Positions 1-36,245 of a stretch of DNA of 64,000 nt are shown here, piece after piece. Within the stretch, counting starts at the first letter, position 1; each line of letters opens with the position of its first letter. The translations under genes were made by a program, and so were the position numbers. The DNA lies in IMG/VR virus record IMGVR_UViG_3300034062_004332, positions 1,687 through 65,686 of that record, one strand, 5' to 3'. The DNA is from a virus. Lineage: Duplodnaviria > Caudoviricetes. The notes below the pieces were generated by a model. It was not told the origin of the DNA and did not search any database. It was given only the letters and a program-made list of their open reading frames with translations.

Positions 1-121
1 GATCGCTAAAGAGTAGTTCTTGTTCGTCTTCTAGGACAGCCATAAAAGCTTGCACAAGATCTTGTGTGCGGAGTGTAGCGTTAGACAGAATTGTGTTCTT
101 GTAAGTGTTGGGGAGTCGCAT
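1..121 (-). CDS. Early-region hypothetical protein (runs off window start)
   Basis: ATG at 121 preceded by the AACTAACC motif; frame open to window edge (MRLPNTYKNTILSNATLRTQDL...). Confidence 0.5.
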   Translation of the reverse strand, partial: MRLPNTYKNTILSNATLRTQDLVQAFMAVLEDEQELLFSD

Positions 122-123
122 GG

Positions 124-321
124 TTAGTTACCTTTGGTGGATTGGATGTGGGCAGCATAAGCTAAGTCGGTCGCTAGCCTTTGTGATTCACGTTCTCTTA
201 GATAGAGTTCTACGTTTTCCCTAGTCGGGATGTTGCACGCCAGCGTGGTTAAATCCTGCGCACGTTGACAAGCGCACAATGCAACATTCATCCATTGTGC
301 GCGGGTCATTCTGTTAGTCAT
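124..321 (-). CDS. Hypothetical protein
   Basis: 65-aa ORF coupled to the upstream gene by ATGA overlap. Confidence 0.55.
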   Translation of the reverse strand: MTNRMTRAQWMNVALCACQRAQDLTTLACNIPTRENVELYLRERESQRLATDLAYAAHIQSTKGN

Positions 322-671
322 TGTTCGCCCCGGTAGAACAGTTGACGCGAGCCACGTTCAATCTCCCAATCAGTTTCACCCTCAGCATGTGCGTACCAAG
401 TGTGATTCTTCTGGTAGATACCTGCGCCACAGTATGTATGCAGGAGTGCATTAAGACGTGATTTAGTTGTAGGTGTTTGCCATGAGCAATCGCTGATGTC
501 AAGTTCATCGGGTGTGATGATTGCAATGGTTGAACCATGCAACCTTACATAAATCCTGTCGATCGTAGTTTCACCGTGAGGGAAACTAACTACTTGGACT
601 TCTGTATTATCGAGACGCCAATCGCGGCGCTCGTTGATTGCTGCGATCATTTGCTGTTCGATCTTACGCAT
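318..671 (-). CDS. Conserved phage early hypothetical protein
   Basis: 117 aa; WQTPTTKSRLNALL segment resembles a common phage early protein. Confidence 0.75.
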   Translation of the reverse strand: MRKIEQQMIAAINERRDWRLDNTEVQVVSFPHGETTIDRIYVRLHGSTIAIITPDELDISDCSWQTPTTKSRLNALLHTYCGAGIYQKNHTWYAHAEGETDWEIERGSRQLFYRGEQ

Positions 672-742
672 TGATCTAGATGGTGATTGTGTTGGTATTG
701 TATGAAGGGCGCCCCGCGTTAGCGGGACTAGGTTAGTTAAAG

Positions 743-1048
743 TCAGGAATAGTAGCGTCCCATGATTACTTCATCGCCTGATGTATCGGCCCACTTGATA
801 AGTACACCGCTGAAGTAACTGTCGCCGTGGTATCCATCCCATCCTTTAAGATCGCCAGTGGATTCATTCTCCACACGCATAAAGTCACCCATTGAATACC
901 ACCAGCCGTGGTATTTAACGAACGACCCATCACGGAACTCGTCATCCGTGAGGAAGTCAAACTGTGAGCGCACAGCTTGGTTGTTGAACAACACAAAACC
1001 CGGTACAGTCTGCCGTGGCTTGTTGTTAGTCTTGATCGTTAGGGTCAC
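743..1048 (-). CDS. Hypothetical protein
   Basis: GTG start at 1048 with AGGAGG Shine-Dalgarno at 1063-1058. Confidence 0.7.
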   Translation of the reverse strand: MTLTIKTNNKPRQTVPGFVLFNNQAVRSQFDFLTDDEFRDGSFVKYHGWWYSMGDFMRVENESTGDLKGWDGYHGDSYFSGVLIKWADTSGDEVIMGRYYS

Positions 1049-1154
1049 TGTGACAATCCTCCTGTGAGTGATAATGTGACATGAAAGCCCCACACTATAC
1101 AGTGTGAGGCAATAGCTGGGCCAGGGCTTACACCTGGCCACCCGTTTGTACGGA

Positions 1155-1364
1155 TCAGCTTAAAACATGAACGTAGTCGATACTTTTAATGCACCAACCT
1201 GTTGCGCAGGTTATCTCCTCTAGCAGATCATCTTCATCATCTGCATCCCAAATCTGGCCGATTGTTTCCTCAGTGACTTCCTGCTGATAATCAGGATCTA
1301 TGTCACCCCAAGTAGGATCGTCAGACGAAAAGTCAAACTCAATGTCGATAACTTGAAACTTCAT
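1155..1364 (-). CDS. Small acidic hypothetical protein
   Basis: 69 aa, D/E-rich, ends EITCATGWCIKSIDY; preceded by AACTAAC. Confidence 0.7.
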   Translation of the reverse strand: MKFQVIDIEFDFSSDDPTWGDIDPDYQQEVTEETIGQIWDADDEDDLLEEITCATGWCIKSIDYVHVLS

Positions 1365-1382
1365 GGCTGTTAGTTAGTGGTG

Positions 1383-1553
1383 TTACTTAAGGTTGAAGCT
1401 AGTAGACTTTAGGTCAGATTCTGTGAATACATCAAAGTAACCATTCGGATAACGTTCGGAATAGTTATCCATGCAATCATTGGCATCATCCTCGTTATGG
1501 TAAATGTCAAGGATTTGTGAATCGTATTCAGTTAGTTTGACAACGTAGAACAT
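1383..1553 (-). CDS. Small hypothetical protein (56 aa, not in ORF track)
   Basis: MFYVVKLTEYDSQILDIYHNEDDANDCMDNYSERYPNGYFDVF...; fills the gap; AACTAACCC upstream. Confidence 0.55.
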   Translation of the reverse strand: MFYVVKLTEYDSQILDIYHNEDDANDCMDNYSERYPNGYFDVFTESDLKSTSFNLK

Positions 1554-1573
1554 GACAATGAAGTTGGGTTAGT

Positions 1574-1804
1574 TCAGTGCTCTTGCTTTAAGTTAGACAG
1601 TGGAACAAACTTGCTAGTTGCATAACACCAGACAGAATCCTTACCGATGTTCCCTGCTACTACATTTGCAGGGCCTCTATAAGATACAGGTCGATTACTC
1701 CTGTATCGTATAAAGTATGGATGCGTTTTACATACCCATTGCTCTGTTCGCAGCTGTTGCATGTTTCCACCACGATCCATGTAAATGAGAAAGTTTGTAG
1801 TCAT
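1574..1804 (-). CDS. Hypothetical protein
   Basis: 76-aa ORF in the operon, AACTAACCC upstream. Confidence 0.6.
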   Translation of the reverse strand: MTTNFLIYMDRGGNMQQLRTEQWVCKTHPYFIRYRSNRPVSYRGPANVVAGNIGKDSVWCYATSKFVPLSNLKQEH

Positions 1805-1861
1805 TGTGAATGTGCAGTTGGGTTAGTTAAGTGTGTGCGGCGCTCCGCGAAGCGGAACCGA

Positions 1862-2128
1862 TCAATAATCAGGCGTGGCCAATGCAACGCGACGAGACAA
1901 ACAAACACCTTCAATAATGTCGCGTTTCAGTTGCTCCTCACGGATAAACTGTTGCGTCTGCTCTGTATCCTTGTCAACACTGTTAGACAATGCGCGGAGT
2001 GTCACCACGCTATTGGCCCACCAGCGTTGCAGTTGTTCATCCGTCAGCATACATACAAACGAATGGAATACATCCATCACAGTATTGATGGACTCTTGAT
2101 TAACACGATTGCGGAAAGTGCGGTTCAT
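1862..2128 (-). CDS. Hypothetical protein
   Basis: Likely start MNRTFRNR at 2128, avoiding overlap with the upstream gene. Confidence 0.55.
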   Translation of the reverse strand: MNRTFRNRVNQESINTVMDVFHSFVCMLTDEQLQRWWANSVVTLRALSNSVDKDTEQTQQFIREEQLKRDIIEGVCLSRRVALATPDY

Positions 2129-2177
2129 TGTGATGTGAATGTAGGGGGAAAATGATGATAGCGATTTGCTGATTGTG

Positions 2178-2438
2178 TCAGCGTAGATGACTGTAGCCTT
2201 TAACTTCATCGGCCCACATAGGGCTAGGGAGTTTAAGGAACTGCCGATACTCTTTGACCGTGCATTTAATACGCTCAGCATCATAAGCTTGCTGACGCCA
2301 CATACCTGGCACAGCGTCACTGCCGTAGTATCCTTCATCCCACGCAGCTATAGCTTCCCCATCGGAGAAGAATACATAAACCCTGCGTGGGTTTCCATTG
2401 ACATCGTTGGATGCACAGTAGTGCTTAATTGTTGCCAT
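2178..2438 (-). CDS. Hypothetical protein
   Basis: 86 aa; NDVNGNPRRVY...DEGYYG resembles cyanophage early proteins. Confidence 0.7.
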   Translation of the reverse strand: MATIKHYCASNDVNGNPRRVYVFFSDGEAIAAWDEGYYGSDAVPGMWRQQAYDAERIKCTVKEYRQFLKLPSPMWADEVKGYSHLR

Positions 2439-2471
2439 GATTAGTTTGATTCAGTTTGGGTTAGTTAAACG

Positions 2472-2717
2472 TCAGCGTTTGATCTGTGCCATCGGATAAC
2501 GTTGGCGCACAATAGCTACAGCGTCATCACGATCGGATGCGCGGATGTAGTCATCCCACAAGCCATCTTCATCCTGCACATAATACAAAGGCGCACCACA
2601 ACCAAAGTAAACACCTCCACGGATGTATCCCCCTTGATTGATACGTTCCTTGCGGATGTACACCTTGCCGGTGTACTCCTTGCACAGTTGTGCAACTTCA
2701 CTGGGCCACATGGTCAT
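2472..2717 (-). CDS. Hypothetical protein
   Basis: RINQGGY..GGVYFGCGAPLY...RASDRDDA; ATG at 2717. Confidence 0.7.
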   Translation of the reverse strand: MTMWPSEVAQLCKEYTGKVYIRKERINQGGYIRGGVYFGCGAPLYYVQDEDGLWDDYIRASDRDDAVAIVRQRYPMAQIKR

Positions 2718-2754
2718 AACAATCCCCGCCAATGTAGACGGGTGCTAACAACAA

Positions 2755-2806
2755 GTGAGGGTGAATCCCTCAGGGTGGGATACATAATCCCACCGGGAGA
2801 GAATCA
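2755..2806 (-). ncRNA. Structured RNA/DNA motif, copy 1
   Basis: TGATTCTCTCCC-[GGTGGGAT TATGT ATCCCACC]-CTGAGGGATTCACCCTCAC; flanks identical to copy 2. Confidence 0.6.
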
Positions 2807-3115
2807 AACTAGAGCTGGCACATACAACTGATCGTTAAATGCTCCAAGCTGTCTAAACTTGTAGTACAGATTCTTATACGCTACACGTTCATCATTGATC
2901 TTAAATGTGTAGCGAAGTTGCCCACCGATAGTCTTACTTACTGTGCATGATAAGCACAACTCACCGTTACGCTTGCCATTAAGATCATACGTTGCCATGT
3001 AGTGCTTGCACACTCCAGGCAATCTATAATCAACAATTCCGTTGCGTTGTTCGTAATTTTCTAACGCAAGTTGCTCAGTCAACTTAACAGCGTTGAGATA
3101 ATCGTTGCAGTTCAT
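2804..3115 (-). CDS. Hypothetical protein
   Basis: 103-aa ORF, AACTAACCC upstream. Confidence 0.65.
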   Translation of the reverse strand: MNCNDYLNAVKLTEQLALENYEQRNGIVDYRLPGVCKHYMATYDLNGKRNGELCLSCTVSKTIGGQLRYTFKINDERVAYKNLYYKFRQLGAFNDQLYVPALV

Positions 3116-3145
3116 GAGATTAAGTTGCGCTGGGTTAGTTATAGA

Positions 3146-3226
3146 TCAGCGGGGAAGTTTGGCCGCTTGCTTACGCTGAAGGCCCGCAGCTTTACGTGCA
3201 ATGGCTTCGATTTGCTTGGCAGTCAT
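3146..3226 (-). CDS. 26-aa basic peptide
   Basis: MTAKQIEAIARKAAGLQRKQAAKLPR with AGGTG SD; first ORF of the early cluster. Confidence 0.4.
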   Translation of the reverse strand: MTAKQIEAIARKAAGLQRKQAAKLPR

Positions 3227-3257
3227 GATAAATCACCTGTTAATGCAAAGTGGATTT

Positions 3258-3311
3258 GTGAGGGTGAATCCCTCAGGCAAGATGTATGAAACATCCTGCG
3301 GGAGAGAATCA
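3258..3311 (-). ncRNA. Structured RNA/DNA motif, copy 2
   Basis: TGATTCTCTCCC-[GCAGGATGT TTCAT ACATCTTGC]-CTGAGGGATTCACCCTCAC; inner stem differs from copy 1 but still pairs. Confidence 0.6.
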
Positions 3312-3312
3312 T

Positions 3313-3950
3313 ACAGTGAGCCTCACTGTTACTTAACAACTAGACCAACGTGTTAGCGTCTTGCAAACATTATGGGGCGACACTTACATCTCATGGATGT
3401 AATGTTCCATGCCCTAGTTATCTGTGCGGGGCTACAGATGGCGTTGTACAGTAACAGTGAAGATCACTGTAGGCAGACTAGATACAGTTGGAAGGATAGC
3501 GTCAGGATCATTATTGATCCTCACTAGATCTAAGTTTGATCCGGTCTGCTGACAGCGTACGTTTAATCAGGCCCCCCATAAAGAGTAAGCCTGACAGCAT
3601 TTGTGAAACATAATCAGCGCACAGATTAGATACAGATCACACAATAACCTAGGCTTAGTTACATTGTCTCGCCATCGTGAGACTACCGCTCAGTGGGGAA
3701 CAATGCAGACCGGCGTGGTTACAATAACCAAACCAGTTAGCTATAGGTACAGTGTGACACTGTAACTAACCTGCACGCTGACAATGTAGATACATTGTGC
3801 CTGCAACTTAGGTAAGCTAAGAGTGTTTATCCAATACGTTAGAACGTAAGGCCTACTCAATTCGGCTACATTGTCCTAACTTACCTGTAGATTATGAGAG
3901 AATAATTGCGGCAGGTTTCGTACATCACCTCACGGCTTTCCTACTACGCG
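3313..3950 (-). ncRNA. Candidate large structured non-coding RNA
   Basis: No ORF of 60 aa or more; over 10 hairpins; long-range helices 3541-3549/3705-3713 and 3810-3821/3875-3886 (G-U pairs on the minus strand). Confidence 0.45.
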
Positions 3951-4252
3951 CACAACTATTCTGTTGTCAAGGTTCGTCAACCTTTCAACCCTTAAAGTCT
4001 GCCGCTCACGTTCAACCAAACCGCGCGGCCTTTGCTTACTGATCGGCAGCCCGTATGGGTTGCTTACGTTCGGCGGCTCGCGTGGTGGGCCGTTCGGCCT
4101 GACGCAGACTTCTCAGGTTTTCAAGGTTCAACCGATCCCTGATGGATCAGTGAACCCATATTGGGGGTGGGGGTGCCCCCCATCAACGAACCTTGTGCCG
4201 GTCTCTCGATTGGCACACTCCACCGGGTCTGGGGCAAGGGCAGGGAAGGAAC

Positions 4253-4350
4253 TGCGCACACGCACACGCACCCGCGTATGTAACGCGCACACACGCACAC
4301 ATGCGGGCACACGCACGCACACACGCACGCGCCCACGCGCACGCACGCGT
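4253..4350. repeat. Alternating purine-pyrimidine (CA/CG) low-complexity tract
   Basis: gcgcacacgcacacgca...cacgcgcacgcacgcgt. Confidence 0.85.
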
Positions 4351-4766
4351 TTATAAATAACTCAGGCACCACCCCCATAGTGTGATACAACAGATACGTT
4401 GTTGTAGCTAACTCACAAAGTATAAAGAATAGCTAACTGGTTTGTATAAGCTTATGCTTACGATTACGATTGCACTCCGGTTGTTATAGCTCACCGCAAT
4501 CGGCCTTTTTTTTATACGCGCGCGTTTCACGTCGGGGGCGGCGAGAAGGTTTTTGGTAGCGAGCGGGTAAAACGGGGTCAAAATCTCTGGTATCAGCATA
4601 GTAACAGGGGCGCAAATGCGCAAAACGCCGCGTGGCTACTGCCAAATGCGCCTTTCAAGTCTTTACGGGGCGCTGTTTTTTGTGTGCGTATGGTGACTTA
4701 GGCGCCTAGAAAAAAATTTCGGCGCGGAAATGCTGCCTAGAATATTTTTAGTCTTCTATGAGCCCT

Positions 4767-4895
4767 ATGACTGGCACTAAAGAGGAGCGTATTCGCAAGC
4801 TTGAGGCGGCTCTTGCCGTTGCTGAGCGGGTCAAAAACGGGTTTTTGGCGGCAAACCTGCGGGAAGCGTTGCGTGATGCGCTACGCGAGGTCTGA
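4767..4895 (+). CDS. Small helical hypothetical protein (42 aa)
   Basis: MTGTKEERIRKLEAALAVAERVKNGFLAANLREALRDALREV; TAGAAT -10 at ~4738. Confidence 0.5.
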   Translation: MTGTKEERIRKLEAALAVAERVKNGFLAANLREALRDALREV

Positions 4896-4986
4896 CTAAC
4901 TTCTAATTTGCTCCTAATTTGACTCAAATTAGGAGTTCGCTAGGTCGATTAGACTGACAGCAAGGGTTTTTTAGGGGATTTGCCGC

Positions 4987-5193
4987 GTGGCGTTAGGGCA
5001 AGAGGCGGATCAGTCGCTGGCGGACGTGCGGTTTGGCGACATTGTGCGGGCTTACGGTCCTGAAGCCTCGCTTGGGCCTTTTCTTGAGGAGTTTGCGGAC
5101 GCTCCAGACGATCCTTTTGTCGCCACGTCCGCTGCCAAAGTGTTTCTGAAACAGTATTTGAACGAGCTTGGGGACGTTCCGTCTTTTCGGTAA
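4987..5193 (+). CDS. Hypothetical protein
   Basis: 68-aa ORF; TAGACT -10 at ~4950. Confidence 0.5.
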   Translation: MALGQEADQSLADVRFGDIVRAYGPEASLGPFLEEFADAPDDPFVATSAAKVFLKQYLNELGDVPSFR

Positions 5194-5256
5194 GCTGTTC
5201 GTCTCACTGCAGCCTGCTCGTCGCGTCCTGTGCGCGATTTGTTTAGCTACAGTTGT

Positions 5257-5329
5257 GCGCTCGTGGCCGAATGGATTAGGCAGCATCCTTCTAAGATGCC
5301 TCATGGGGGTTCGAATCCCTCCGAGCGTG
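5257..5329 (+). tRNA. tRNA-Arg(UCU)
   Basis: Acceptor GCGCTCG/CGAGCGT, anticodon arm GCATC-CTTCTAA-GATGC, T-loop GTTCGAATC; no encoded CCA. Confidence 0.9.
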
Positions 5330-5340
5330 TTTAAAACATA

Positions 5341-5363
5341 GGAAAACCGCCCTTTCGAGCGGC
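5341..5363 (-). terminator. Rho-independent terminator
   Basis: GCCGCTC-GAAA-GGGCGGT-TTTCC after the 5373..5735 stop. Confidence 0.6.
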
Positions 5364-5372
5364 TGTTTTCTT

Positions 5373-5735
5373 TTAGTTCATCGCGTTAAGCGTAAAGTAG
5401 ATCTCATCTGGGAAGTTCGAGAAGAATTTAAGGGTTGCGGGACATAGCCAGCCTTTTTCGGTTGCATTGCCCTCAGAATTAAGCTCGTACCACGCGCCTC
5501 CGTGCTCCTCTTCTATTTTTGTAAGTCGAGTTGAGCAAGTAGGAAACTGTCGCTCGCTAAAAGTAATAGCATAGGTTGTTTTGTTTTTTTGGTCTTCGAT
5601 ATTTTCTATTAGTTTGTCGATCATTTCTGGGATCCCTAAGACGAAGGGTTCGTGCAGCAGCCCCCGTGCCTCGTCTGTGAAGCACCACGTCCCCGCGTGG
5701 CGGTAAATTTCGATGGTCATCATGCTGTTGGACAT
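5373..5735 (-). CDS. DUF6717-like protein
   Basis: IYRHAGTWCFTDEARGLLHEPFVLGIPEMID...GWLCPATLKFF signature. Confidence 0.75.
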   Translation of the reverse strand: MSNSMMTIEIYRHAGTWCFTDEARGLLHEPFVLGIPEMIDKLIENIEDQKNKTTYAITFSERQFPTCSTRLTKIEEEHGGAWYELNSEGNATEKGWLCPATLKFFSNFPDEIYFTLNAMN

Positions 5736-5833
5736 TTGATGTGTGTAGGGCTTCTACAGTGTACCACGTAGTACGGCGTTCTTAAGTCGTTTTTGGCGGG
5801 TTTCCGTATACTAGATAAAGATACATAGGTCCG

Positions 5834-8800
5834 ATGCCTCAGCAATTTAATACCGATAATCTGAGGAAGGCTCTAGATCAGTATGCTGAATACGATCGTA
5901 ATAATTATTATGAGTATGATGATGCACGAGAGGCTCTTATAGATCGTGCTGTTCAGAACAGATTATTAAATGAATACATAGAAAATGAAATAAGATATGA
6001 AAGAGAAAACGACCCTGCTTACTATGATGATCCTGATTTTGATCCTGACGGACCTATTGAACAGTATGAGATAGATGAGTACGCCAGACGTTTGGGTGTA
6101 AATGATTTACCTAATGAAGTTCCGTATTCCTCTACTGTTAACGTAGATCCAGATTACGAAGATCTTAATGTTTATAATTTAGTTAATGAGAACCCTAAAG
6201 CTAGAGAATTTTTTACAAGCAATAGAGTTCAATTTGATCCTACGGAGCGTACTGAAGTAGGTGATCGGTTCTTAAGAGCACTGCGAGCCGGTGCGTTTAC
6301 TCCAGAGCAGATCAATAATCTAGCGAACATACGGGCTATTGGGACTTCCTATGCTTTAGAAGATATTTCCGATGAGTCAACTGCATTCGAGGTTGCGAAC
6401 TTTGTTAATCGTGCTGCCACTGGGCGTGATGTGGCTCCATTAGAGCCTATTTATGAAAATACTGCTGAAACGATTAACACAGTAGCTGACTTAAGTTCAA
6501 TAGAACGAGCTTTACGACAGTATTCTTATGACCTGCGTGATACTAGAGAACGTTTAGGGAGGCTTCAGGCTGCTGGATCTACCCCTGTTTCAGGCAGTCC
6601 AGAACCTTTAGCTCAGCGTGGGCAACCGCAACAGCTTTCTCTTTCTGTTGAGTCGGACCCTACACAAGGTCGTTTAGCTTCGCTAACCACGGGTTTTGAG
6701 TCGTTACCGACTTCTTTTAATACAGTCTCTGATCTAACTGAAGCTAGAAATCGTTTACAGAATATTCAGCGAGATCTCAGTGGTCTTATAGGCATAAGGA
6801 ACGACTCTTCTGACAGAGCCCGTGACTTTATTCAATCCTCTGTTTTGCCTTCCGTAAGAGACGCTTTAGGTGATGCTGCCACTGACAGAGCTGTATATAA
6901 CGCATATAGGAACATGATGAATGAGCGTCGCGAAGCTGCGGATAGAGACCGTGATGCGAATGCGCCTAGAGCGAGAAGGAGACCTTACGATGCCTCCGCG
7001 CCTATGCCTGTGTTAGGGCGCAGTTCCGAGGGGATGGCACCTATTACTGGCCTCAACGAAGAACTCCAGCGCGGGCGGATAGAGGAAGTTCGGCAAGCTG
7101 TTGCTCAGTTTCCTGAAGTTGAGCGTTTGCTGCGTGCATCCTTAAAGGATCCAGAAAGATCTCCGATTCGAGGTGCTGCGGCTAAACCGTACCTGGCTTA
7201 CGCAGATACCCAACAGGTTATATCGATGCCTGAGGAAAGAGTACAACTGTATGAAACTCTGCTTGAAACTGAACCTGAGTTTGTTGCGGACCCTGCAGGA
7301 GGGCTAAACGTAGTTCAAGATATTGAAACGTTGTATACTAGCGGGAATCCAGAGTTGCAACAGCGAACATTTGAAACTTTAGATTCTTATGGATTTGGTG
7401 ATCGTTTGCGTGAAATTTCTGTCCCTGCTACGTCCACCACAAGACCTATCGTTGGTGGCGGTGGTTATGTAGGAGGTTTTAAAGAAACGGATGAATCTCG
7501 TGCGTTACGGGGGAAAATAAACGCACGCGCCCAAGCTTTAGAAGCTGCGATGTCGGGTAACGAGGATATTCTTCGTTCTGCTTATCCTGGGTTCTTTGAC
7601 AGACCTTCGGTTTCACGGAAGTTAGAAGTTGTCTACGACCCAGATACTGATACCGTGCGTCCTGCCGGTCCTGGGGACACTAATACCTACGGTATTGCAG
7701 TGAGCACAGGTAATCCTAGATTGAATCCTACTGAAGCAGTTTATGCTTTAGGTAATAACACTGTATCAGCTAACGCTCTGAGGTTCTTTGCAGACAATCC
7801 TGTTTTAGGTTCAACTAGTGTTTCTTTTACGACTAGAACTCCGTCTGAAGGGTATAGCTATGAACCTAAAGATTTACCGTCTGCAGTTAGTGACGCCTTC
7901 GGTCGGTTCGCCCAACGCACGGCCTTACAAGGTCTGCCCCCCGGCACTCTAGTCTCCAACAGCCCTTTAAGCTCTGAAGACTTACTTAGATCGAAGCGAA
8001 GAGAAGGCAAAACTGCGGATACCAGTTCTACTGTTCGAAAGCTAGAAGCGTTTGAAAGCGCTGGACAGCCTCTGCCGAATCTACGAGCTGCTGCGTATAC
8101 AACAGCCGGTTTTGGACCTTATACCGGAGGGTCTCAATACGCTTACATTGATGCAGAAGGCAAAGTCGTTCCTGTACAGCTTGAAAGATCTGGGGGCGGT
8201 TTTTCTGATGCACTGCGTTTTAACCCTTATTCCAATGAGATTGAAGTCGGAAGAGGACGTTTGCCTTTAACAACTAAGGCTTACTACTCTACCGATCCCG
8301 TCACTGCAGCCACGCGGGGCTTAGCCGAGCTGGGGCGTGGTATTCGACGTACTCCGGCGGCTTTAGCTCCTGGTGCTGCCGATCTTATCCCTAGTCCCGA
8401 AGCCATTCAAACCGGATATAGAGAGGGGGCTTTGCCCATGGTACGTCAAATGGGTACTGAGTTTGTGCAGAGTCTTCCTGCTGCTGCAGCTTCTGCCGCT
8501 GTTTTAGCCACGCCGGTCGCTGCTCCTTTAGCTCCTGGTATCGGCGCTGGTATGGTTGGGGTCGCTGGCACTCGCGCTTTGAATGAGGTTGTAAGGCAGC
8601 AGACTGGTGAAGGCGTTGTGCCGAAATTGCGCCAAGTCATTGGTACTGCACCTCGAACCGGCGTGGCTTCTCCACAACGTCGTGGTCCCGCTGTCACCCC
8701 ACAAATCCGTCCGTTGAACCAAGCGCAGCGTGCTGAAATGCAACGTCGGCAGAATCGCAACGAGCTACAAAAACGTATGGATCTGGCTCGTGAGCGGTTT

Positions 8801-8851
8801 AACCCCCTGCGCGGTGAGTTTGGTGTGACTGAGCTGCTGTTTGGTCGTTGA
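5834..8851 (+). CDS. Large hypothetical protein (1005 aa), possibly virion-associated
   Basis: Long ORF with acidic N-terminus and Ala/Gly/Arg-rich C-terminus; no family recognised. Confidence 0.85.
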   Translation: MPQQFNTDNLRKALDQYAEYDRNNYYEYDDAREALIDRAVQNRLLNEYIENEIRYERENDPAYYDDPDFDPDGPIEQYEIDEYARRLGVNDLPNEVPYSSTVNVDPDYEDLNVYNLVNENPKAREFFTSNRVQFDPTERTEVGDRFLRALRAGAFTPEQINNLANIRAIGTSYALEDISDESTAFEVANFVNRAATGRDVAPLEPIYENTAETINTVADLSSIERALRQYSYDLRDTRERLGRLQAAGSTPVSGSPEPLAQRGQPQQLSLSVESDPTQGRLASLTTGFESLPTSFNTVSDLTEARNRLQNIQRDLSGLIGIRNDSSDRARDFIQSSVLPSVRDALGDAATDRAVYNAYRNMMNERREAADRDRDANAPRARRRPYDASAPMPVLGRSSEGMAPITGLNEELQRGRIEEVRQAVAQFPEVERLLRASLKDPERSPIRGAAAKPYLAYADTQQVISMPEERVQLYETLLETEPEFVADPAGGLNVVQDIETLYTSGNPELQQRTFETLDSYGFGDRLREISVPATSTTRPIVGGGGYVGGFKETDESRALRGKINARAQALEAAMSGNEDILRSAYPGFFDRPSVSRKLEVVYDPDTDTVRPAGPGDTNTYGIAVSTGNPRLNPTEAVYALGNNTVSANALRFFADNPVLGSTSVSFTTRTPSEGYSYEPKDLPSAVSDAFGRFAQRTALQGLPPGTLVSNSPLSSEDLLRSKRREGKTADTSSTVRKLEAFESAGQPLPNLRAAAYTTAGFGPYTGGSQYAYIDAEGKVVPVQLERSGGGFSDALRFNPYSNEIEVGRGRLPLTTKAYYSTDPVTAATRGLAELGRGIRRTPAALAPGAADLIPSPEAIQTGYREGALPMVRQMGTEFVQSLPAAAASAAVLATPVAAPLAPGIGAGMVGVAGTRALNEVVRQQTGEGVVPKLRQVIGTAPRTGVASPQRRGPAVTPQIRPLNQAQRAEMQRRQNRNELQKRMDLARERFNPLRGEFGVTELLFGR

Positions 8852-21851: not shown

Positions 21852-24575
21852 ATGCCGAGTCGGGAATCGTTTGCTTACCGCCGTGGGACTCAGTTTAAAG
21901 CAGTTCGTGCGCAGGAGAGCGCTCCAGTAACCGTAGATAACATCTATGCTAAAGCGGCAAACGACTTCCAGACCTTCTGTACGGTACTGGATAAACCACC
22001 CGCTAAGCACATGTTAGAGTGGCACCAGCACTTAATTACAGGTGAGTCTAATAAGTACTTGCTAGATATTGCAGGACCTAATCTTGACATTTTAAGTCCG
22101 CGAGGGCCTCTGCATCCAGACACAGAGGTTGCAACTCCCTTGGGCTGGAGGCCACTTAAAAATTTAAATATAGGAGATTTGGTTTACGGGGACGACGGTG
22201 AGCCAACAGAAGTTCTAGATGTAATGTCCTACGGTTCCACAAAGTTATTTGAGGTGACGTTTTCGGATGGAACTTCAATGGTTTGTGATGCGTCGCATCG
22301 GTTTGATGTCAGACGCATGGGGACAGACCCAAAGGGGACCTACCGTACAATGACTTTGCAGGAGATAAAAGATTTTGTTACTACTGGGATTAAAGGTAAC
22401 TGGAGGACCGGGATTCAGCGCACAGTGCGCCAAGCGTTGCCGGGAGAAACACCGTGGCTAGATACAAGAGGTCACAGCAGGTATCAGGTTCCGGTCACTG
22501 CTCCTATTAATTATCCAGAAGCTGATTTGCCTCTCCACCCTTATTTAATCGGTGTTCTTCTAGGGGATGGAGGTTTAACAGATAAAACTTCTATAAACCT
22601 CACAACTATTGATACAGATATAGTTGATTTTATTAATACTATCTTGCCTGAAGATACTATTTTAGTTGAGCGGTCGTATGAATCTCGGAAGTACTCATAT
22701 CAGTTTCAGACGACCCAGGGTGTAAAAAAAACTATTATAGATGGCAGAAGAGGAGGCTTTAAAAAAGAAATTTCTCTACATTTAGAGAACTTGGGTATGC
22801 GAGGTAAAGGGGCGTTAGAGAAGTCTATTCCTAAACAATATTTATATGGGTCTGTGGAGCAGCGTGAATGGCTTCTGCGCGGCCTTATGGATACGGATGG
22901 CACACGAATGTCTCGTAGCCAGCATCAAAGCGATTCTGGTCGCGGAGGGTTAGCGTTCGGTAGCTCTAGCCTACAACTTATTACAGACTTTATAGAGCTT
23001 GTACGCTCTTTAGGTGGTGTTGCGTACTTTAATAAACCATATTATCCTCATTACTTTAAAGGCAAAGAAAAGATTGTAAGTAAAAATTTAGCTTATAGAT
23101 GCAGCTTTGCATTGCCTGCTGACATCAAGCCGTTTTTCTGCAAACGTAAGTCTGACGCTTATAAGGGTCCAGTATCTTCTAGATCTAATCGAGGTGTCGT
23201 TCGATCGATTATAGACATTAAACCGTGCGGGGAGAGCCCTGTAATGTGTATCCGCGTGGCTAATCCAAAAGAACGTTTCGTTATAAAAGATTATGTAGTT
23301 AGTAAAAATAGCGCCAAATCTACGGTCTTGAATTTATTTACTGCATGGATTATTGGGAGGCACACCAGCGCTCAGTTGCCTCTACAGATTATTTACGTTT
23401 CGTACAACATCAATACGGCTATACCGAAGAGTCGGATTATCAAGCAGATCATCGACTCTGTTGAGTTCAAGAAGGTATTCCCTCGTGTAAAACTCAAGAC
23501 GGGGATGCAGTCAGACGTTGGCTGGTCAATTGATTTTGAGTACGCTGGTATCCCTCGCGTAGGTGATGAAGAATTTACTCTAAGAGCTGCAGGATTAAGA
23601 GGATCAATTACATCAAAAAGGGCTCACCTTGTTATTATAGATGACCCGATCAAGTCAAGTACCGACATTAAGAACCCTATTATTAGAGAAGAGATGAATA
23701 ACAACTGGTCTTCTGTGATCTCTCCAATTATTTTTGAAGGTGGACGCTCTATATGTCTAGGGACGCGCTTCCACCCACTCGATATTCACAAAACTCTCTT
23801 CGTGGAGTCTAAGGGCTGGAAGCAGGTTACGCAAGAGGCTTTGACCTATGACAACCATGGTAATGCGATCAGTTACTGGCCCGAGCAGTGGTCTGTGAGC
23901 TACCTGCAACAGCAGAAGGAGCTGGACCCCGTGGCTTTTGCCTTCCAGTATCAACAGCAGCCCGTACTAACCTCTGATTTGATCGTTTCGCCTGAGTTGC
24001 TTGTCAAAGGTGAGGTAGTTACAGAGTTTGATTCGCTAGCGGTCGGCATTGACTTGTCGGCCAGCAGGAATGAAACCAGCGACTACACGGCTTTCGTGTT
24101 GGGCGGACGGCTCAAAGATATGTACTACATAATCGACGCGCACCAGTGTCGAAGTATCGGCAACTTAGAGAAGATTGATTTATTGTGTGACATGTTATTA
24201 GAGTGGGGGATTTTGGTTAAACAGGACAACATCTATGCACCTACATACTCCACGGTGACACTCGTGGTCGAATCCGTGGCGTATCAGGCGTCCTTGGCAG
24301 CGGACATCAAACGGGTCTTAATTAACGAGCGCGAATTGACGAATTTAAATATCCATGAAGTCAAAGGGTTCCGGGGCGACAAGCTGTCGCGTTTCCGAGG
24401 TACACTTGGTATCCTTGAACACAAGAAGGTGGTGTTTAACAAATATCGCAAGTTTGATGCGCTATTTGAACAGTTGATTAATGTGGGTGCTACGTCTCAC
24501 GATGACTTACTGGATGCTTACACACACCTGATCACGTTCCTTCAGCGTCGCGGTAGTTTTTCGATCGAATACTGA
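21852..24575 (+). CDS. terL: Terminase large subunit with intein
   Basis: Walker A PRG|SAKST split by the intein; Walker B VIIDD; GTRFH; nuclease GIDLS...DYTA...HDDLLDA. Confidence 0.93.
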   Translation: MPSRESFAYRRGTQFKAVRAQESAPVTVDNIYAKAANDFQTFCTVLDKPPAKHMLEWHQHLITGESNKYLLDIAGPNLDILSPRGPLHPDTEVATPLGWRPLKNLNIGDLVYGDDGEPTEVLDVMSYGSTKLFEVTFSDGTSMVCDASHRFDVRRMGTDPKGTYRTMTLQEIKDFVTTGIKGNWRTGIQRTVRQALPGETPWLDTRGHSRYQVPVTAPINYPEADLPLHPYLIGVLLGDGGLTDKTSINLTTIDTDIVDFINTILPEDTILVERSYESRKYSYQFQTTQGVKKTIIDGRRGGFKKEISLHLENLGMRGKGALEKSIPKQYLYGSVEQREWLLRGLMDTDGTRMSRSQHQSDSGRGGLAFGSSSLQLITDFIELVRSLGGVAYFNKPYYPHYFKGKEKIVSKNLAYRCSFALPADIKPFFCKRKSDAYKGPVSSRSNRGVVRSIIDIKPCGESPVMCIRVANPKERFVIKDYVVSKNSAKSTVLNLFTAWIIGRHTSAQLPLQIIYVSYNINTAIPKSRIIKQIIDSVEFKKVFPRVKLKTGMQSDVGWSIDFEYAGIPRVGDEEFTLRAAGLRGSITSKRAHLVIIDDPIKSSTDIKNPIIREEMNNNWSSVISPIIFEGGRSICLGTRFHPLDIHKTLFVESKGWKQVTQEALTYDNHGNAISYWPEQWSVSYLQQQKELDPVAFAFQYQQQPVLTSDLIVSPELLVKGEVVTEFDSLAVGIDLSASRNETSDYTAFVLGGRLKDMYYIIDAHQCRSIGNLEKIDLLCDMLLEWGILVKQDNIYAPTYSTVTLVVESVAYQASLAADIKRVLINERELTNLNIHEVKGFRGDKLSRFRGTLGILEHKKVVFNKYRKFDALFEQLINVGATSHDDLLDAYTHLITFLQRRGSFSIEY
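22107..23309 (+). mobile_element. Intein (401 aa) with LAGLIDADG endonuclease, class-3-like
   Basis: PLHPDTEVATPLGW...VMCIRV...VVSKN|S; LAGLIDADG helices LIGVLLGDG and LRGLMDTDG. Confidence 0.9.
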
Positions 24576-33805: not shown

Positions 33806-36245
33806 TTGTTCGTCGACAATGATTTTCCGAAGCTGCTCGGTGCAGAACTCTACCGTCCGCATCAATAGGTGCCTAAGTGGTGAAAGTCACTTAGCAAATC
33901 CCGTGAATTGCTGGAATCCTTCTTCCAGTGCTTAACAACCCTTCGGGGGAACCTTGACAATCAGACCCGGCCACACCGGGCGCAAAATATTTAAAGACTT
34001 CTCTTTGAGCACGGAGGAGTCGAGGAAATCAGCAGCGAAGCCGCGTGGGAACATGCGGAACGTTCAGAGACTAGATGAAGTAATCCAGACCGGATGAAAC
34101 ATCCACGAGCGCGGGACACCCTACAGGTAAGCTGAGGGTGATGATATAGTCCGAGCTTACACGATAGTAAAGTGTAAGAACTAGAAGATAAAGAGCTTCT
34201 AGGATAACAATCTGCCTGCGTACGTTGTAGAGATGGCTGCGGAGCCTGTTGTAGTCCATGACTTCAGCAAGCAACCAGGCCAGACTGTGCAGCTTGACCG
34301 TTATCGGTTCTAGACTATTACCCTGGAACCCTAAGGTGAAAGCCTTAGTTTAACAAACTCCGTGAATTGCTGGAAGCCCTTCAACGCATTAAGCGCGGGT
34401 AATCAGCAGCCGAGCCAGGTGGTAACATCTGGAAGGTTCAGAGCATAGCTGTGTCTAATCTTTCTGCGACGGATTTTGAATTTGTTTTAGGCTGCGGCGT
34501 GGGAGATGGGAGTTTTTCTCTCATTTCTACTAAGCGAGGAGACAGAAACTATTACTACCCTCGTTTAAAAATTACGCACGGTGTTGAACAAGTTGATTAT
34601 CTGAGGTGGAAAGCTGATCGCATAAACTCGATCTTTAATCGGACGACCCCTGTATCGTACGTATTCAAGAAAGAGTCCAGAGAAGGCTGGAAAGACTTCG
34701 AAGGTTATGAGTACAAATTTACTCATTCTGATCTTCGACCGTTTTACGATTTGCTTTATCCCAATCTTCAGGGTTCAAAGAAAATTACTCGCGAGCTTCT
34801 CGCTGAGTTAAACGGTGTCCCCCTTGGACTTCTCTTTATGGATGACGGAAGCGGCGGTCTCTATCTGGAACAAAATAACCGCAAACTAAAAAGCGGTTAT
34901 AAACGATACGAGTATTTAGTTCCTCGTATCGAATTTGCAACCAACGGTTTTACTTCTGAGTGTGTGACGCTTTTAGCTGACTGGATAGCGTCTGTAAGCG
35001 GTTGCGGCACACGCATTAAACAGAAGACGAATCGAATTTGCATTGTCCAGAAAGACTGTTATAAATTTAGGGATTTTATAGATCCCTATGTGCCGATTTC
35101 CTGTATGCGATACAAACTAGACCTTGAAACTGTAAAAAGTTTCAAGCGAGTCCTTACGGGACAATAAGCAGCCACGAGTGCGGAGCCCCAAACGTAACCA
35201 GCCGTGGGTGATGATGTATGCCGACCTTACGGGATGATAAACCGTAAGAACTAGAGGATAAAAAGCCTTTAGGTTAACAAATGGGGGCAATCCCGGCTCT
35301 AAGGAATCGCGTGAGCGTACTGCAGAACAAACCATTGGTACTGCGAACAGCAGGAACATTGTCAAGGACAAAGTTCTTGTAACTCTTCGTGAGTACACAG
35401 GTCCTGCTGATCCTAGCGATCCTACTCAACCTAGCACTTTTAAGATTGCTAGAGAGACCCTGATTACCGCGCAGCGTTTACTGCTGGACACTGGTAATCT
35501 GACGGCCTTCCATCAATCTATTGGTTCTCTGACTCTGTTAGACGACTATAGAAGATGGCGCGACAGAGTGTTCATTAATGAACTCCTGAAGGCTGTTTCG
35601 AAGGGTCAATCTTCTGACACCCAAGGTGGTTACTACTACCCTGGTGATCTTGCAGTTGGTGCCCTTTCGTACGCTAACGCCGAGCAAGCCAAGTTCGACG
35701 TTAAGGACGATCTTCTCCGCGTGGTTAAGTCTCTGCGCAAGAGAAACGTCCCGACGTATCAGGATGGTTTTTATCGCTGTGTGTGCGATCCGACCTTCCT
35801 TATGCACCTGAGACAGAATAGCGACTTCCGTGAAGTTGCTCGCTATCCTGGCAACGGTCAGATCAACCCTCTCATGTCTTCGATGCAGCCTAACGCTGCT
35901 ATCTACATGGGTCAGGGTTTCGGTCAGGCTACTTTTGTAGCCGGTGAACCGATCATGCCCACTGGATTTGTGTTCGAAGGCGTTAGATTTTTCGAGAGCA
36001 CAAACATGCCCTCGCAGAGTCAAACTGCCACGATCGCTTCTACTAGCGCTTCGTACGAAACTGCCATCGGCATGTTCTTCGGCCCTCAGAGCGTCGGTGT
36101 GGGTATCGGCGGCAACAACGCTCAAGTGTTGTTGAATAATAACGACGATTTCAGCAGATTTATCATGATGATTTGGAGCCTGTACGCAGGTTTCGAACTC
36201 CTGAACGCTGATTTCGCCACCATCGCTTATTCCTTCAACGCTTGA
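33806..36245 (+). CDS. Major capsid protein, spliced: join(33806..33862,34215..34311,35284..36245), 371 aa
   Basis: GGAGG SD + TTG; spliced frame MFVDNDFPKLLGAELYRPH|PAYVVEM...DRYRF|WGNPGSKE... continuous with ORF 35568..36245. Confidence 0.85.
33863..34214 (+). mobile_element. Group I intron 1 (352 nt, no ORF)
   Basis: Exon U with IGS GUGC; core GAATTGCTGGAA, AATCAGCAG, GTTCAGAGACTA, GATATAGTCC; terminal G. Confidence 0.92.
34312..35283 (+). mobile_element. Group I intron 2 (972 nt) with homing endonuclease
   Basis: P1 GGTTCT/GGAACC; GAATTGCTGGAA, AATCAGCAG, GTTCAGAGCATA, GATGTATGCC; terminal G. Confidence 0.92.
34451..35167 (+). CDS. Intron-encoded LAGLIDADG homing endonuclease
   Basis: VLGCGVGDGS and GLLFMDDGS double motif; SCMRYK end. 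Confidence 0.88.
   Translation: MSNLSATDFEFVLGCGVGDGSFSLISTKRGDRNYYYPRLKITHGVEQVDYLRWKADRINSIFNRTTPVSYVFKKESREGWKDFEGYEYKFTHSDLRPFYDLLYPNLQGSKKITRELLAELNGVPLGLLFMDDGSGGLYLEQNNRKLKSGYKRYEYLVPRIEFATNGFTSECVTLLADWIASVSGCGTRIKQKTNRICIVQKDCYKFRDFIDPYVPISCMRYKLDLETVKSFKRVLTGQ

Follow-up and report, generated by a model that had tools for sequence, protein, structure and literature searches.

Much of the mortality of picocyanobacteria, both marine and freshwater, is controlled by cyanophages, and to our knowledge almost nothing is known about the expression of early genes in these phages. One comparable arrangement is that of phage T7, in which E. coli RNase III cuts the early mRNA at sites between the genes; these sites, which we take to be R0.3, R0.5, R1, R1.1 and R1.3, reportedly owe their names and cut positions to the work of Dunn and Studier in 1983. 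A second comparable device is the trp-type leader attenuator, in which three segments enter two exclusive pairings and a ribosome at a stop codon decides between them. The PeSL cassettes (promoter-early stem-loop) of T4-type phages are presented as composite terminator/promoter sequences (PMC4122927; see also PMC2839356), and a further report (PMC2864571) gives manA, wcaG and PhotoRC-II as RNA motifs of cyanophages. The two repeats described here are members of a widespread, previously undescribed family of RNA hairpins, about 60 bases long, that lie between the early genes of cyanobacterial viruses.

The repeats in the window

The window, by which we mean the whole 64,000-nucleotide stretch of DNA that was analysed, comes from an S-EIVl-like cyanophage, not a T7-like one, and both copies of the repeat are on its minus strand, within a leftward operon of small genes.

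An earlier note on this DNA had placed a two-copy structured element at 2755 to 3311, and its coordinates are correct, the letters that it quoted being those of the minus strand. The shared flanks that it reported are there: on the plus strand the 20-mer GTGAGGGTGAATCCCTCAGG has two exact occurrences, at 2755 and 3258, where 0.01 are expected from 100 shuffles, and on the other side GGGAGAGAATCA is found exactly at 2795 and 3300. The inner sequences differ, as it said, and in the minus-strand fold both form hairpins, with upper stems of 8 or 9 bp that have no sequence in common. In the long-hairpin fold both copies have three outer pairs, a U.U mismatch, the six pairs UCUCUC/GAGGGA, a 2x2 loop (CC/CU), and then the upper stem of 8 or 9 bp with its 5-nt loop; the folding energies are -25.6 kcal/mol for copy 1 (z -3.6) and -23.6 kcal/mol for copy 2 (z -4.6). 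The proposal that GAGGG takes part in two exclusive pairings also holds, since each copy contains the short hairpin GAGGG-AUUCA-CCCUC, whose GAGGG is also that of the long hairpin, and copy 1 does start at the stop codon of the upstream gene, a 103-aa ORF. From 5' to 3' each copy has a 5' arm, an upper hairpin (P2), a centre and a tail, and the centre can pair either with the arm (P1) or with the tail (P3):

2755..2806, minus strand: copy 1 as a whole (5' arm, upper hairpin, centre and tail), from the fold; 83.1 bits with model R1
2795..2806, minus strand: 5' arm of copy 1, UGAUUCUCUCCC; the UGA at 2804-2806 is the stop of the 103-aa ORF
2774..2794, minus strand: upper hairpin P2 of copy 1, GGUGGGAU-UAUGU-AUCCCACC, from the fold
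2762..2773, minus strand: centre of copy 1, CUGAGGGAUUCA, with the 5' arm (P1) or the tail (P3) as partner, from the fold
2757..2761, minus strand: tail of copy 1, CCCUC, the 3' strand of the alternative hairpin P3
3258..3311, minus strand: copy 2 as a whole, preceding the first small ORF in the leftward operon, from the fold; 68.2 bits with model R1
3300..3311, minus strand: 5' arm of copy 2, UGAUUCUCUCCC
3277..3299, minus strand: upper hairpin P2 of copy 2, GCAGGAUGU-UUCAU-ACAUCUUGC, from the fold
3265..3276, minus strand: centre of copy 2, CUGAGGGAUUCA
3260..3264, minus strand: tail of copy 2, CCCUC
2804..3115, minus strand: 103-aa ORF between the copies; replaced by an unrelated 84-aa ORF in L005, a close relative
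3146..3226, minus strand: 26-aa ORF with an AGGUGA ribosome-binding site, starting 33 nt past the tail of copy 2
2472..2717, minus strand: 81-aa ORF downstream of copy 1
2725..2742, minus strand: a further small hairpin, in the gap that separates copy 1 from the 81-aa ORF start, with compensating stem changes in relatives
3312..3467, minus strand: 156-nt insertion abutting the 5' edge of copy 2, absent in L005

Distribution of the family

The description "two-copy" is right for the genome of the window and wrong elsewhere, where the family runs to well over a hundred copies: a covariance model of the kind that the earlier note had recommended was built and found 137 copies in 98 aquatic viral and metagenome stretches. 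Comparison with Rfam, which it had also suggested, gave no known family; in Rfam 15 no family overlaps the element at gathering score, and nothing falls on the element at E <=10 in positions 2600-5400 of the window or at E <=1 in 7 further loci that hold at least 14 copies. A pattern search of prokaryote genomes gave 9 matching stretches, of which eight score 12.8-23.9 bits with model R1 and the ninth has no match. None of these looks like a member of the family, and we take them as chance matches, since they reach 23.9 bits at most with this model and the copies taken as real at least 29. Among GenBank phages, megablast with a 1.3 kb query gave no match and word-11 blastn with two variants of the element gave only chance matches (E >=0.8), a result that does not show absence because the invariant runs are only 11-12 nt long. 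In the literature the literal sequence of the element was met only as unrelated primers, and searches for publications on cyanophage RNase III, on T7-like intergenic regions and on RNA motif covariation in cyanophages brought up no description of it.

The family is common to T7-like cyanopodoviruses and to S-EIVl-like phages of 86 to 87 kb, with 1 to 3 copies per genome. In T7-like cyanopodoviruses the marine copies precede the gene of the T7-type RNA polymerase (PF00940) by 0.9 to 1.6 kb, and copies ahead of this gene were found in L067, L086, L037, L112, G004 and G005. The complete 87-kb genomes have a single copy that stands ahead of the first gene, with no gene upstream; S-EIVl itself gave no model match. 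Direct cmsearch of early-region loci found two divergent copies in the cultured Prochlorococcus phage NATL1A-7, at L145:3103-3173 and 4190-4305, and nothing above 10.4 bits in S-TIP37, S-CBP1, S-B28 and S-SBP1. Some ORF families are partly shared among five element-bearing genomes that were compared, namely a family A DNA polymerase in four of them and psbA in G004, G005 and G007.

Two conserved, mutually exclusive folds

The lower stem P1 is nearly invariant (GAYUCUCUC/GAGGGAYUC) and is separated by a 2x2 internal loop from P2, which is hypervariable: it has 6 to 10 pairs and is found in 88 different sequences. Of these 88, 22 carry a UNCG tetraloop, which gives stability to RNA in particular. 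At its base P1 has a duplex with dyad symmetry, GAYUC/GAYUC, of a kind that a homodimeric enzyme could recognise; in 104 of 128 rows the central mismatch of this duplex consists of two identical pyrimidines. In the 128 distinct rows, whose alignment was fitted to the models and is biased towards the proposed structures, 99.4% of the P1 and P2 cells are paired (77.6% in shuffles), 10 of the 15 pairs show changes on both sides, and the covariation score is 0.524 against 0.122, a value reached in none of 500 shuffles.

The 3' tail, CCCUY, is able to pair with the same GAGGG as the 5' arm does, which gives P3 with a loop of 5 to 9 nt. A full 5-bp complement of the centre is found no more than 18 nt downstream in 120 of 124 distinct copies, compared with 67 in composition-matched shuffles and 2 in the stretch 22 to 40 nt downstream; in the alignment, subject to the same bias, 96.2% of P3 cells are paired and 4 of 5 pairs carry two-sided changes. 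Joint change of all three strands is seen where the centre is GAAGG, the arm UCCUUUC and the tail CCUUC, and again in NATL1A-7 (centre GAGUG, arm UCACUC, tail CGCUC); in further variants a GCUGG centre goes with a CCAGC tail and a GAGAG centre with a CUCUC tail. Comparison of the copies argues for selection on the P1/P2 structure and for conservation of both exclusive folds with compensatory changes. Covariation for both folds is the property expected of a conformational switch, and to this extent the RNA switch that the earlier note had offered as one reading appears to be partly supported. A triple helix with the 5' arm as its Hoogsteen strand was considered and discarded, because in L094 (centre GAAGG) the arm, checked by hand, obeys Watson-Crick and not Hoogsteen rules.

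Stop codon and gene context

A stop triplet stands at the 5' edge of the element in 129 of 136 contexts, as TGA at the arm in 105, as TAG one base earlier in 21 and as TAA three bases earlier in the remaining 3. Copies that have A in place of the U of UGA regain a stop, UAG, through a U just before it; in NATL1A-7 a UAA stop is matched by a change of its pairing partner to UUA. The upstream ORF ends exactly at the TGA of the arm in 57 of 110 contexts and 1 to 12 nt before it in 27, and it runs into the element in only 5; by chance an upstream frame is expected to end at the arm's stop in about one case in three. No upstream ORF of at least 45 codons is present in 26 of the 136 contexts, which include the single copies of the 87-kb genomes, and the stop triplet is still there.

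On the other side, an ATG ORF of at least 25 codons begins within about 100 nt downstream, on the same strand, in 131 of 137 copies, its start codon being at a fixed distance. The downstream ORFs make up 53 protein clusters with no relation to one another, whereas manA, wcaG and PhotoRC-II are, in their report, tied to particular gene classes. As described there, those motifs resemble the element in being cis-acting and in occurring in cyanophage and marine metagenome DNA; they are in Rfam (RF01745, RF01761 and RF01717, respectively), and none of them matches in the window or the 7 further loci. Two translational readings of the context were rejected. Bypass or read-through does not fit with downstream ORFs that have their own start codons and belong to so many unrelated clusters, nor with a P2 length that is not a multiple of three, and for masking of the downstream ribosome-binding site by a free arm or tail, the two-state folds showed no consistent change at that site.

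Within their aligned stretch, the window and L005 are nearly identical in the DNA on either side of the ORF between the copies, and this ORF is swapped, the 103-aa ORF and the 84-aa ORF of L005 giving no BLASTP alignment at E up to 100. The right-hand edge of this replacement and the edge of the 156-nt insertion both fall exactly at the 5' edge of an element, and in L074 and L060 the copies are re-assorted with different downstream genes. PeSL cassettes, as reported, are likewise short conserved intergenic motifs beside small early genes, at the edges of replacements or indels between relatives, and the element too sits at the edge of a gene swap when the window is compared with L005. It is unlike the cassettes described there in having no regular U-run and in having a second conserved fold and an embedded stop codon. 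None of the three sigma-70-type promoter-like sites in positions 1-6000 of the window overlaps either copy, and the conserved columns contain no -10/-35 pair at fixed spacing.

A possible processing site

The reading that we tentatively prefer, at a probability of about 0.4, is that the element is an RNA signal of early polycistronic cyanophage transcripts, lying between genes and in the 5' leader, and that it may be a processing site for a host enzyme of the RNase III type, where the cut would free the 3' hairpin to act as a cap-like stabiliser of the new 5' end. The comparison of copies shows two conserved folds, a stop codon at the 5' edge and a place in early operons; beyond these, we infer the cut, the enzyme and the post-cut roles of P2 and P3 as follows. 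The nascent element would fold into the long hairpin, with the conserved P1, the 2x2 internal loop and a very stable P2 of free sequence; a host double-strand-specific endonuclease of the RNase III type would recognise the lower stem and the loop and cut there. The upstream mRNA, with its stop codon at the base of the stem, would then retain P2 as a block at its 3' end, and in the downstream mRNA the freed GAGGG would pair with the CCCUY tail to form P3 at or beside the newly made 5' end. There, with the next start codon some 25 to 35 nt further on, it could guard against 5'-end-dependent decay.

An RNase III gene is absent from the four phage genomes searched, three of which carry the element, and all-against-all blastp of ORFs of at least 40 aa gave no family that is present in all five of the element-bearing genomes compared, which represent two phage types. 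Synechococcus encodes RNase III, and an RNase III transcript of Prochlorococcus MED4 is listed in a published source (PMC5082946). A host enzyme is at hand, and no phage-encoded partner is evident. The near-invariance of P1 across distant phages exceeds the known needs of this enzyme, because RNase III usually reads shape rather than sequence. Other points also speak against processing: a classical substrate would have a longer helix than the 17 to 21 base-pair equivalents found here, the single copy of the 87-kb genomes has no upstream gene to separate, and P1 would be melted by a ribosome that terminates at the embedded stop, which could impede the cut instead of helping it.

The earlier note had compared the element with the RNase III-type processing sites of T7 early mRNA, and the comparison stands for the place of the marine members in the early regions of T7-like cyanophages and for the hairpin layout, but not for sequence kinship. 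The T7 sites lie between early genes in a T7-like phage and measure about 55 to 60 nt, each being a hairpin whose lower stem is separated by an internal loop from an upper stem of about 9 pairs. Five T7 intergenic regions folded in the same manner as the element gave its shape, that of an irregular, internally looped hairpin about two helical turns long. The helix of the element, with 2+6 pairs, one mismatch, the 2x2 loop and 6 to 10 pairs, is likewise a two-turn hairpin. In the T7 gaps that have an upstream gene, the stop is in or next to the lower stem in two of three, and the next start is about 20 to 30 nt past the hairpin. An early-operon place in a T7-like phage is found for the marine members of the family, the phage of the window being of the other type. 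No sequence homology to the T7 or T3 sites was detected, model R3 with filters off giving at most 6.9 bits on T7 1-8000, so the analogy is one of architecture only. There are differences in kind as well: the lower stem of the element is invariant and its upper stem free, whereas in the five T7 folds, judged by eye, the upper stem and loop look conserved; the conserved alternative 3' hairpin was not seen in those five folds; the element is also present in 86 to 87 kb phages that apparently have no RNA polymerase of their own; and cleavage is known for T7 and predicted for the element. If the element is a processing site, the T7 early-mRNA paradigm would reach cyanobacterial hosts, with the new twist of a built-in hairpin that forms at the 5' end after the cut.

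Alternative explanations

A ribosome that terminates on the stop codon of the arm might instead melt P1 and let the centre pair with the tail as P3, P1 re-forming when translation is lacking, which would couple the downstream gene to translation of the upstream one; we regard this as possible, if rather unlikely. The near-constant stop triplet speaks for it, as does its compensation by UAG, or in NATL1A-7 by UAA with partner UUA, where UGA is lost, and upstream ORFs end exactly there more often than the one case in three expected by chance. Yet the 26 contexts without an upstream ORF keep the triplet as well, and the embedded stop does not separate this reading from processing, because two of three T7 intergenic hairpins carry it too. 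Compensatory changes in both folds favour such a toggle, and P3 formed in 13 of 14 folds when the first 14 nt were blocked, but in the 14 cases folded the downstream ribosome-binding region had the same fold in both states, so that no output of the switch is visible. The output could be re-initiation through an exposed Shine-Dalgarno-like GAGGGA, to which variants such as GCUGG are poorly suited, not being Shine-Dalgarno-like, or it could be nuclease access or mRNA life span. With the same reserve we consider that the three-strand toggle could be a portable coupling module that spread between unrelated cyanophage families as the joint of exchangeable cassettes; a ribosome-driven toggle would be a new kind of intergenic coupling device. 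Its three strands pair in two exclusive ways around a suitably placed stop codon, as in trp-type attenuators; unlike those, it has no regulatory codons, its upstream frame is a full gene and not a leader peptide, and its second hairpin is too weak and too irregular for a terminator. A transcription attenuator, in which P3 and the following U-rich stretch would be an intrinsic terminator and P1 the anti-terminator, we hold to be highly unlikely. The terminator scan does list P3 of copy 1 with the tail CUUGUUGUUA, and UUGU or UUAUUGUUU follows the tail in many copies, but P3 has just 5 pairs, copy 2 is not in the scan, and several copies (L046, L059, L035) have no U-rich stretch past the tail. 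Long hairpins are not followed by a U-run, U-rich tails past P3 occur in part of the copies, and a terminator would rarely form because P1 is transcribed first and is far more stable. NATL1A-7, as a cultured carrier of two divergent copies, could serve for tests.

It seems improbable to us that the element is an operator at which some sequence-specific RNA-binding protein distinct from RNase III binds, either a host factor or a phage early repressor or antiterminator, with P2 as a mere clamp. This reading agrees with a P1 and loop that are nearly invariant beside a free P2, with the dyad-symmetric GAYUC/GAYUC base and with the small number of copies per genome, but it leaves no role for the conserved P3 or the embedded stop codon, and its partner would have to be a host protein because the five genomes compared share no ORF family. 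It is barely credible that the element is a small self-cleaving ribozyme or a promoter used by a single-subunit phage RNA polymerase. Part of the 3' half presumably resembles the T3/T7 promoter core (ACCCTCACT; GACTCACTAT), which we count for a promoter; this stretch is, however, the P3 loop, whose length varies, so its spacing is not fixed, and PF00940 was not found in G000, G001 and G002, in a search whose controls also gave no match, though the family is readily found in marine loci. The variable hairpin within invariant flanks recalls small ribozymes, but no Rfam ribozyme appears at E <=10 in the window or E <=1 in the seven further loci, and two helices unable to coexist give no known catalytic core. 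It is very unlikely, finally, that the element is purely a recombination joint or mobile cassette boundary in DNA (attC- or miniature-inverted-repeat-like) with no RNA function. The unrelated gene between the copies of a relative whose flanking DNA is nearly identical, the insertion abutting copy 2, exchange edges exactly at 5' edges of the element and the re-assorted downstream genes of L074 and L060 all suit such a joint. Against it, orientation is tied to the genes, with a same-strand ORF downstream in nearly all copies and its start codon at a fixed distance, the G.U pairs and UNCG tetraloops point to RNA, and no recombinase was seen with the element, as judged from the five genomes that lack a common ORF family. 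Exchange at conserved sequence is, moreover, expected of any repeated signal, and the conserved flanks may, as a by-product, provide homologous joints for the exchange of early gene cassettes. Whether it is read as a processing site or as a ribosome-driven toggle, the element would account for where such cassettes are exchanged and would be a marker for early regions in uncultured cyanophage contigs.

The repeated element

All convincing ORFs between positions 1 and ~3226 of the window lie on the minus strand, and the earlier note quotes its sequences as minus-strand RNA. On the plus strand, exact copies of the 20-mer GTGAGGGTGAATCCCTCAGG stand only at 2755 and 3258 (0.01 expected), and the 12-mer GGGAGAGAATCA has exact occurrences at 2795 and 3300; these word matches, together with folding, bear out the shared flanks and inner hairpins of 8–9 bp that had been described.

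Features of the two copies (minus strand; structures are predicted folds, the same in each copy)
2755..2806: copy 1; as the earlier note had it, this copy begins at a stop codon, its opening UGA (2804-2806) ending a 103-aa ORF (2804..3115)
3258..3311: copy 2, preceding the 26-aa ORF with which the leftward operon opens
Outer pairs of the long hairpin: 3, UGA/UCA
Mismatch above the outer pairs: U.U
Pairs above the mismatch: 6, UCUCUC/GAGGGA (with the outer pairs and mismatch, the lower stem P1)
Internal loop: 2x2, CC/CU
Upper stem (P2): 8 or 9 pairs, sequences unrelated between copies
Terminal loop: 5 nt

The fold energies of the two copies are -25.6 and -23.6 kcal/mol (z-scores -3.6 and -4.6). 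In both, the predicted folds recover the two exclusive uses claimed for the 3'-strand GAGGG, which can pair with the 5' arm or, in a short alternative hairpin (P3), with a CCCUC just downstream.

Family size and covariation

Searching IMG/VR for the two flanks separated by a free gap gave six stretches, which with the window's two copies have seven different inner sequences, all hairpins; a looser pattern gave 44 stretches in IMG/VR and, in metagenomes, at least 115. An inner hairpin of at least five pairs is present in 124 of 145 distinct model matches, and the remainder are chance matches to the pattern. Covariance model R1, built from seven copies, gave 137 matches at E ≤1e-4 (128 distinct rows) in 98 sources, each picked because it held a pattern or model match. 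The description "two-copy" therefore holds for the 65.7-kb virus record, where there are only two, but not beyond it. R1 also recovered copies whose flanks depart from the search pattern, and these are the informative ones. Nine stretches in prokaryote genomes match the pattern; model scores are 12.8 to 23.9 bits for eight of them, and the ninth has no model match, against at least 29 bits for copies taken as real, and all nine were taken as chance. Rfam 15 gave no match at the element at any threshold tried, so the covariance search of phages and metagenomes that had been proposed yields a family outside Rfam, and no description was found in literature searches, which did not extend to paper supplements. 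Genomes carry one to three copies, grouped near each other. The data strongly support a real RNA motif family in the early operons of cyanophages, apparently undescribed.

Long-hairpin statistics (128 distinct rows, 500 shuffles)
Cells paired: 99.4% observed, 77.6% shuffled
Pairs changed on both sides: 10/15 observed, shuffled mean 7.5/15
Covariation score: 0.524 observed, 0.122 shuffled

None of the 500 shuffles attained the observed value for any of the three measures, and sliding the 3' partners along lowers pairing to 32 to 60%; this alignment, like those used for P3 below, was fitted to the models, and some of the conservation in the flanks is imposed by the fixed search patterns. P2 is free in sequence: its 88 different versions have 6 to 10 pairs and a median energy of -10.7 kcal/mol, and 22 of the 88 carry UNCG tetraloops. 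P1 is near-invariant yet covarying across the 128 rows: U-A is replaced by A-U in 7 rows and by C-G in 4, and C-G by U-A or A-U at one pair in 3 rows and by U-A at another in 1. At its base, GAYUC/GAYUC forms a dyad-symmetric duplex (columns 7-11 with 60-64 of A4, the 128-row alignment) whose central mismatch consists of two identical pyrimidines in 104 of the 128 rows (U.U 60, C.C 44), which may reflect lineage or homodimer reading.

A full 5-bp complement of the centre lies no more than 18 nt downstream in 120 of 124 distinct copies, compared with 67 in composition-matched shuffles and 2 for the stretch 22 to 40 nt downstream; the P3 loop is 5 to 9 nt in nearly all copies. P3 is 96.2% paired in a second model-based alignment, with two-sided changes in four of its five pairs, in few rows. 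Copies in which arm, centre and tail have changed jointly are the most telling.

Copies with joint changes of 5' arm, centre and tail
Loci L094:758 and L052:3340: arm UCCUUUC, centre GAAGGG, tail CCUUC
Locus L035:653: arm with one mismatch, centre GCUGG, tail CCAGC
Locus L101:10284: arm pairs with centre, centre GAGAG, tail CUCUC
Prochlorococcus phage NATL1A-7, copy at 4190-4305: arm UCACUC, centre GAGUGA, tail CGCUC

Gene context and possible function

Upstream ORFs of at least 45 codons in 136 distinct contexts
Ending at the arm's TGA: 57
Ending 1 to 12 nt before the arm's TGA: 27
Ending further upstream: 21
Ending inside the element: 5
None found: 26

Of the 136 contexts, 129 have a stop triplet at the 5' edge: in 105 it is the TGA of the arm, in 21 a TAG shifted one base upstream and in 3 a TAA shifted three bases upstream. 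Downstream on the same strand, an ATG ORF of 25 codons or more follows 131 of 137 copies, and its start codon is mostly 16 to 25 nt past the point where the model ends. The distinct proteins encoded downstream, 127 in all, form 53 clusters, and the element is therefore not tied to one gene.

With gene ends taken from the T7 record, the T7 early intergenic regions (five sequences) fold into a lower stem, an internal loop and an upper stem of ~9 pairs; the gene 0.4 UGA is within the lower stem, the gene 0.7 UGA immediately precedes the hairpin, and the next start codon is ~20 to 30 nt past it. We take these hairpins to be the RNase III sites of Dunn and Studier (1983). The T7-type RNase III site suggested in the earlier note is paralleled in layout and genomic place, but the cyanophage element has no sequence similarity to the T7 hairpins (best 6.9 bits), and their conserved stem, by eye in the five folded sequences, is reversed relative to its own. 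The element most probably works like the T7 sites, with a conserved second fold added.

Our preferred reading, to which we assign a probability of roughly 0.4, is that the element would be a signal for mRNA processing and stabilisation, cleaved by an RNase III-type enzyme of the host. The cut would fall at the internal loop (in T7 sites, reportedly on its 3' side), the very stable, sequence-free P2 would be a 3' block for the upstream mRNA, GAGGG...CCCUY would be left as hairpin P3 at the new 5' end, and the dyad-symmetric base would suit a homodimer. Processing of this kind would account for the shape, the place, P2, the basal stop codon and P3. The main rival, a toggle flipped by the terminating ribosome, would explain why the stop triplet is kept even where its sequence changes, and in modelled folds blocking 14 nt gave P3 in 13 of 14 cases, P3 being already present in the free fold in 2 of 14; the downstream ribosome-binding region, however, shows no visible output, and we consider the toggle rather unlikely as the function. 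Processing and toggle are mutually compatible. A protein operator, a pure DNA joint, an attenuator, a phage promoter and a ribozyme are lesser rivals.

Phages carrying the element

The marine copies are on contigs with T7-type RNA polymerase, primase-helicase, family A DNA polymerase and T7-type terminase genes; the polymerase encoded on one of them (locus L112) shares 72% identity with its counterpart in Synechococcus phage S-B28. A T7-like record estimated 100% complete (G004) has a copy 0.9 kb upstream of the polymerase gene, and in the record G005 two copies stand 1.2 to 1.6 kb upstream of it. The window, which makes up most of a record estimated 81% complete, has structural genes, a terminase bearing a putative intein, a group I intron and four tRNAs, and its 742-aa protein is 45.7% identical to a Synechococcus phage S-EIVl protein. 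In this phage and two complete 87-kb relatives no match was found to T7-type RNA polymerase (control genomes also gave none) or to an RNase III gene (controls matched in 8 of 14 genomes, including Synechococcus). The element is thus common to two unrelated cyanophage types; among ORFs of at least 40 aa from five element-bearing genomes of these types, no family able to encode a partner was shared by all.

Direct model searches of early-region loci gave at best 10.4 bits in S-TIP37, S-CBP1, S-B28 and S-SBP1, and a model search of S-EIVl gave no match. NATL1A-7 has two divergent copies: one (33.8 bits) has the stop UAA with its pairing partner changed to UUA, centre GAAGGA and tail CCUUC, and the other has a P2 of ~78 nt.

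We note that G004 (47 kb) and an 86-kb record, G007, also estimated 100% complete, both have psbA (L197:5562-6590 in G004; 88% protein identity) and share several small ORFs, which indicates gene flow between the two element-bearing phage types. Three marine metagenome loci have tRNA genes a few hundred bases ahead of their element arrays (L034 171-772, L018 1044-1115, L045 177-248).

Modular exchange and other features of the window

The window and its close relative L005 are near-identical through copy 2 and the 26-aa ORF; from the next ORF's start they differ wholly as far as the 5' edge of copy 1, and across copy 1 itself identity returns. The replaced ORFs give no BLASTP alignment with each other. 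A 156-nt insertion (3312-3467) adjoins the 5' edge of copy 2, and loci L074 and L060 have the same hairpins in front of different genes. Because one end of the swap and the insertion lie at element edges and genes are re-assorted in L074 and L060, the element is also a joint for modular exchange. In this it resembles the PeSLs of T4-type phages, which are such joints (PMC4122927).

The ~2 kb that separate the leftward early operon from the rightward genes (3312-5370) have no convincing ORF and contain GATC-rich repeats (~3490-3545), a G/T-rich low-complexity run (~4260-4350) and a tRNA (5257-5329). For a 1005-aa ORF (5834-8851) there is neither a Pfam family nor a tblastn match in GenBank phages; L060 has a 1007-aa ORF (3131-6151) that likewise belongs to no Pfam family. 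Weak Hint and LAGLIDADG signals in the first half of the 907-aa large terminase (21852-24575) suggest an intein. The group I intron (33840-34173; Rfam, 72 bits) directly follows an 835-aa ORF without Pfam match and is followed by a LAGLIDADG endonuclease ORF (34451-35167).

A second small hairpin (2725-2742, minus strand; CCCGUC-UACAUU-GGCGGG), followed by GAUUGUUAUG, lies between copy 1 and the start of an 81-aa ORF. Its stem in relatives is GCCAGC/GCUGGU or GCACGC/GCGUGU between unchanged flanks, so compensating changes have kept the hairpin, which overlaps the likely ribosome-binding site.
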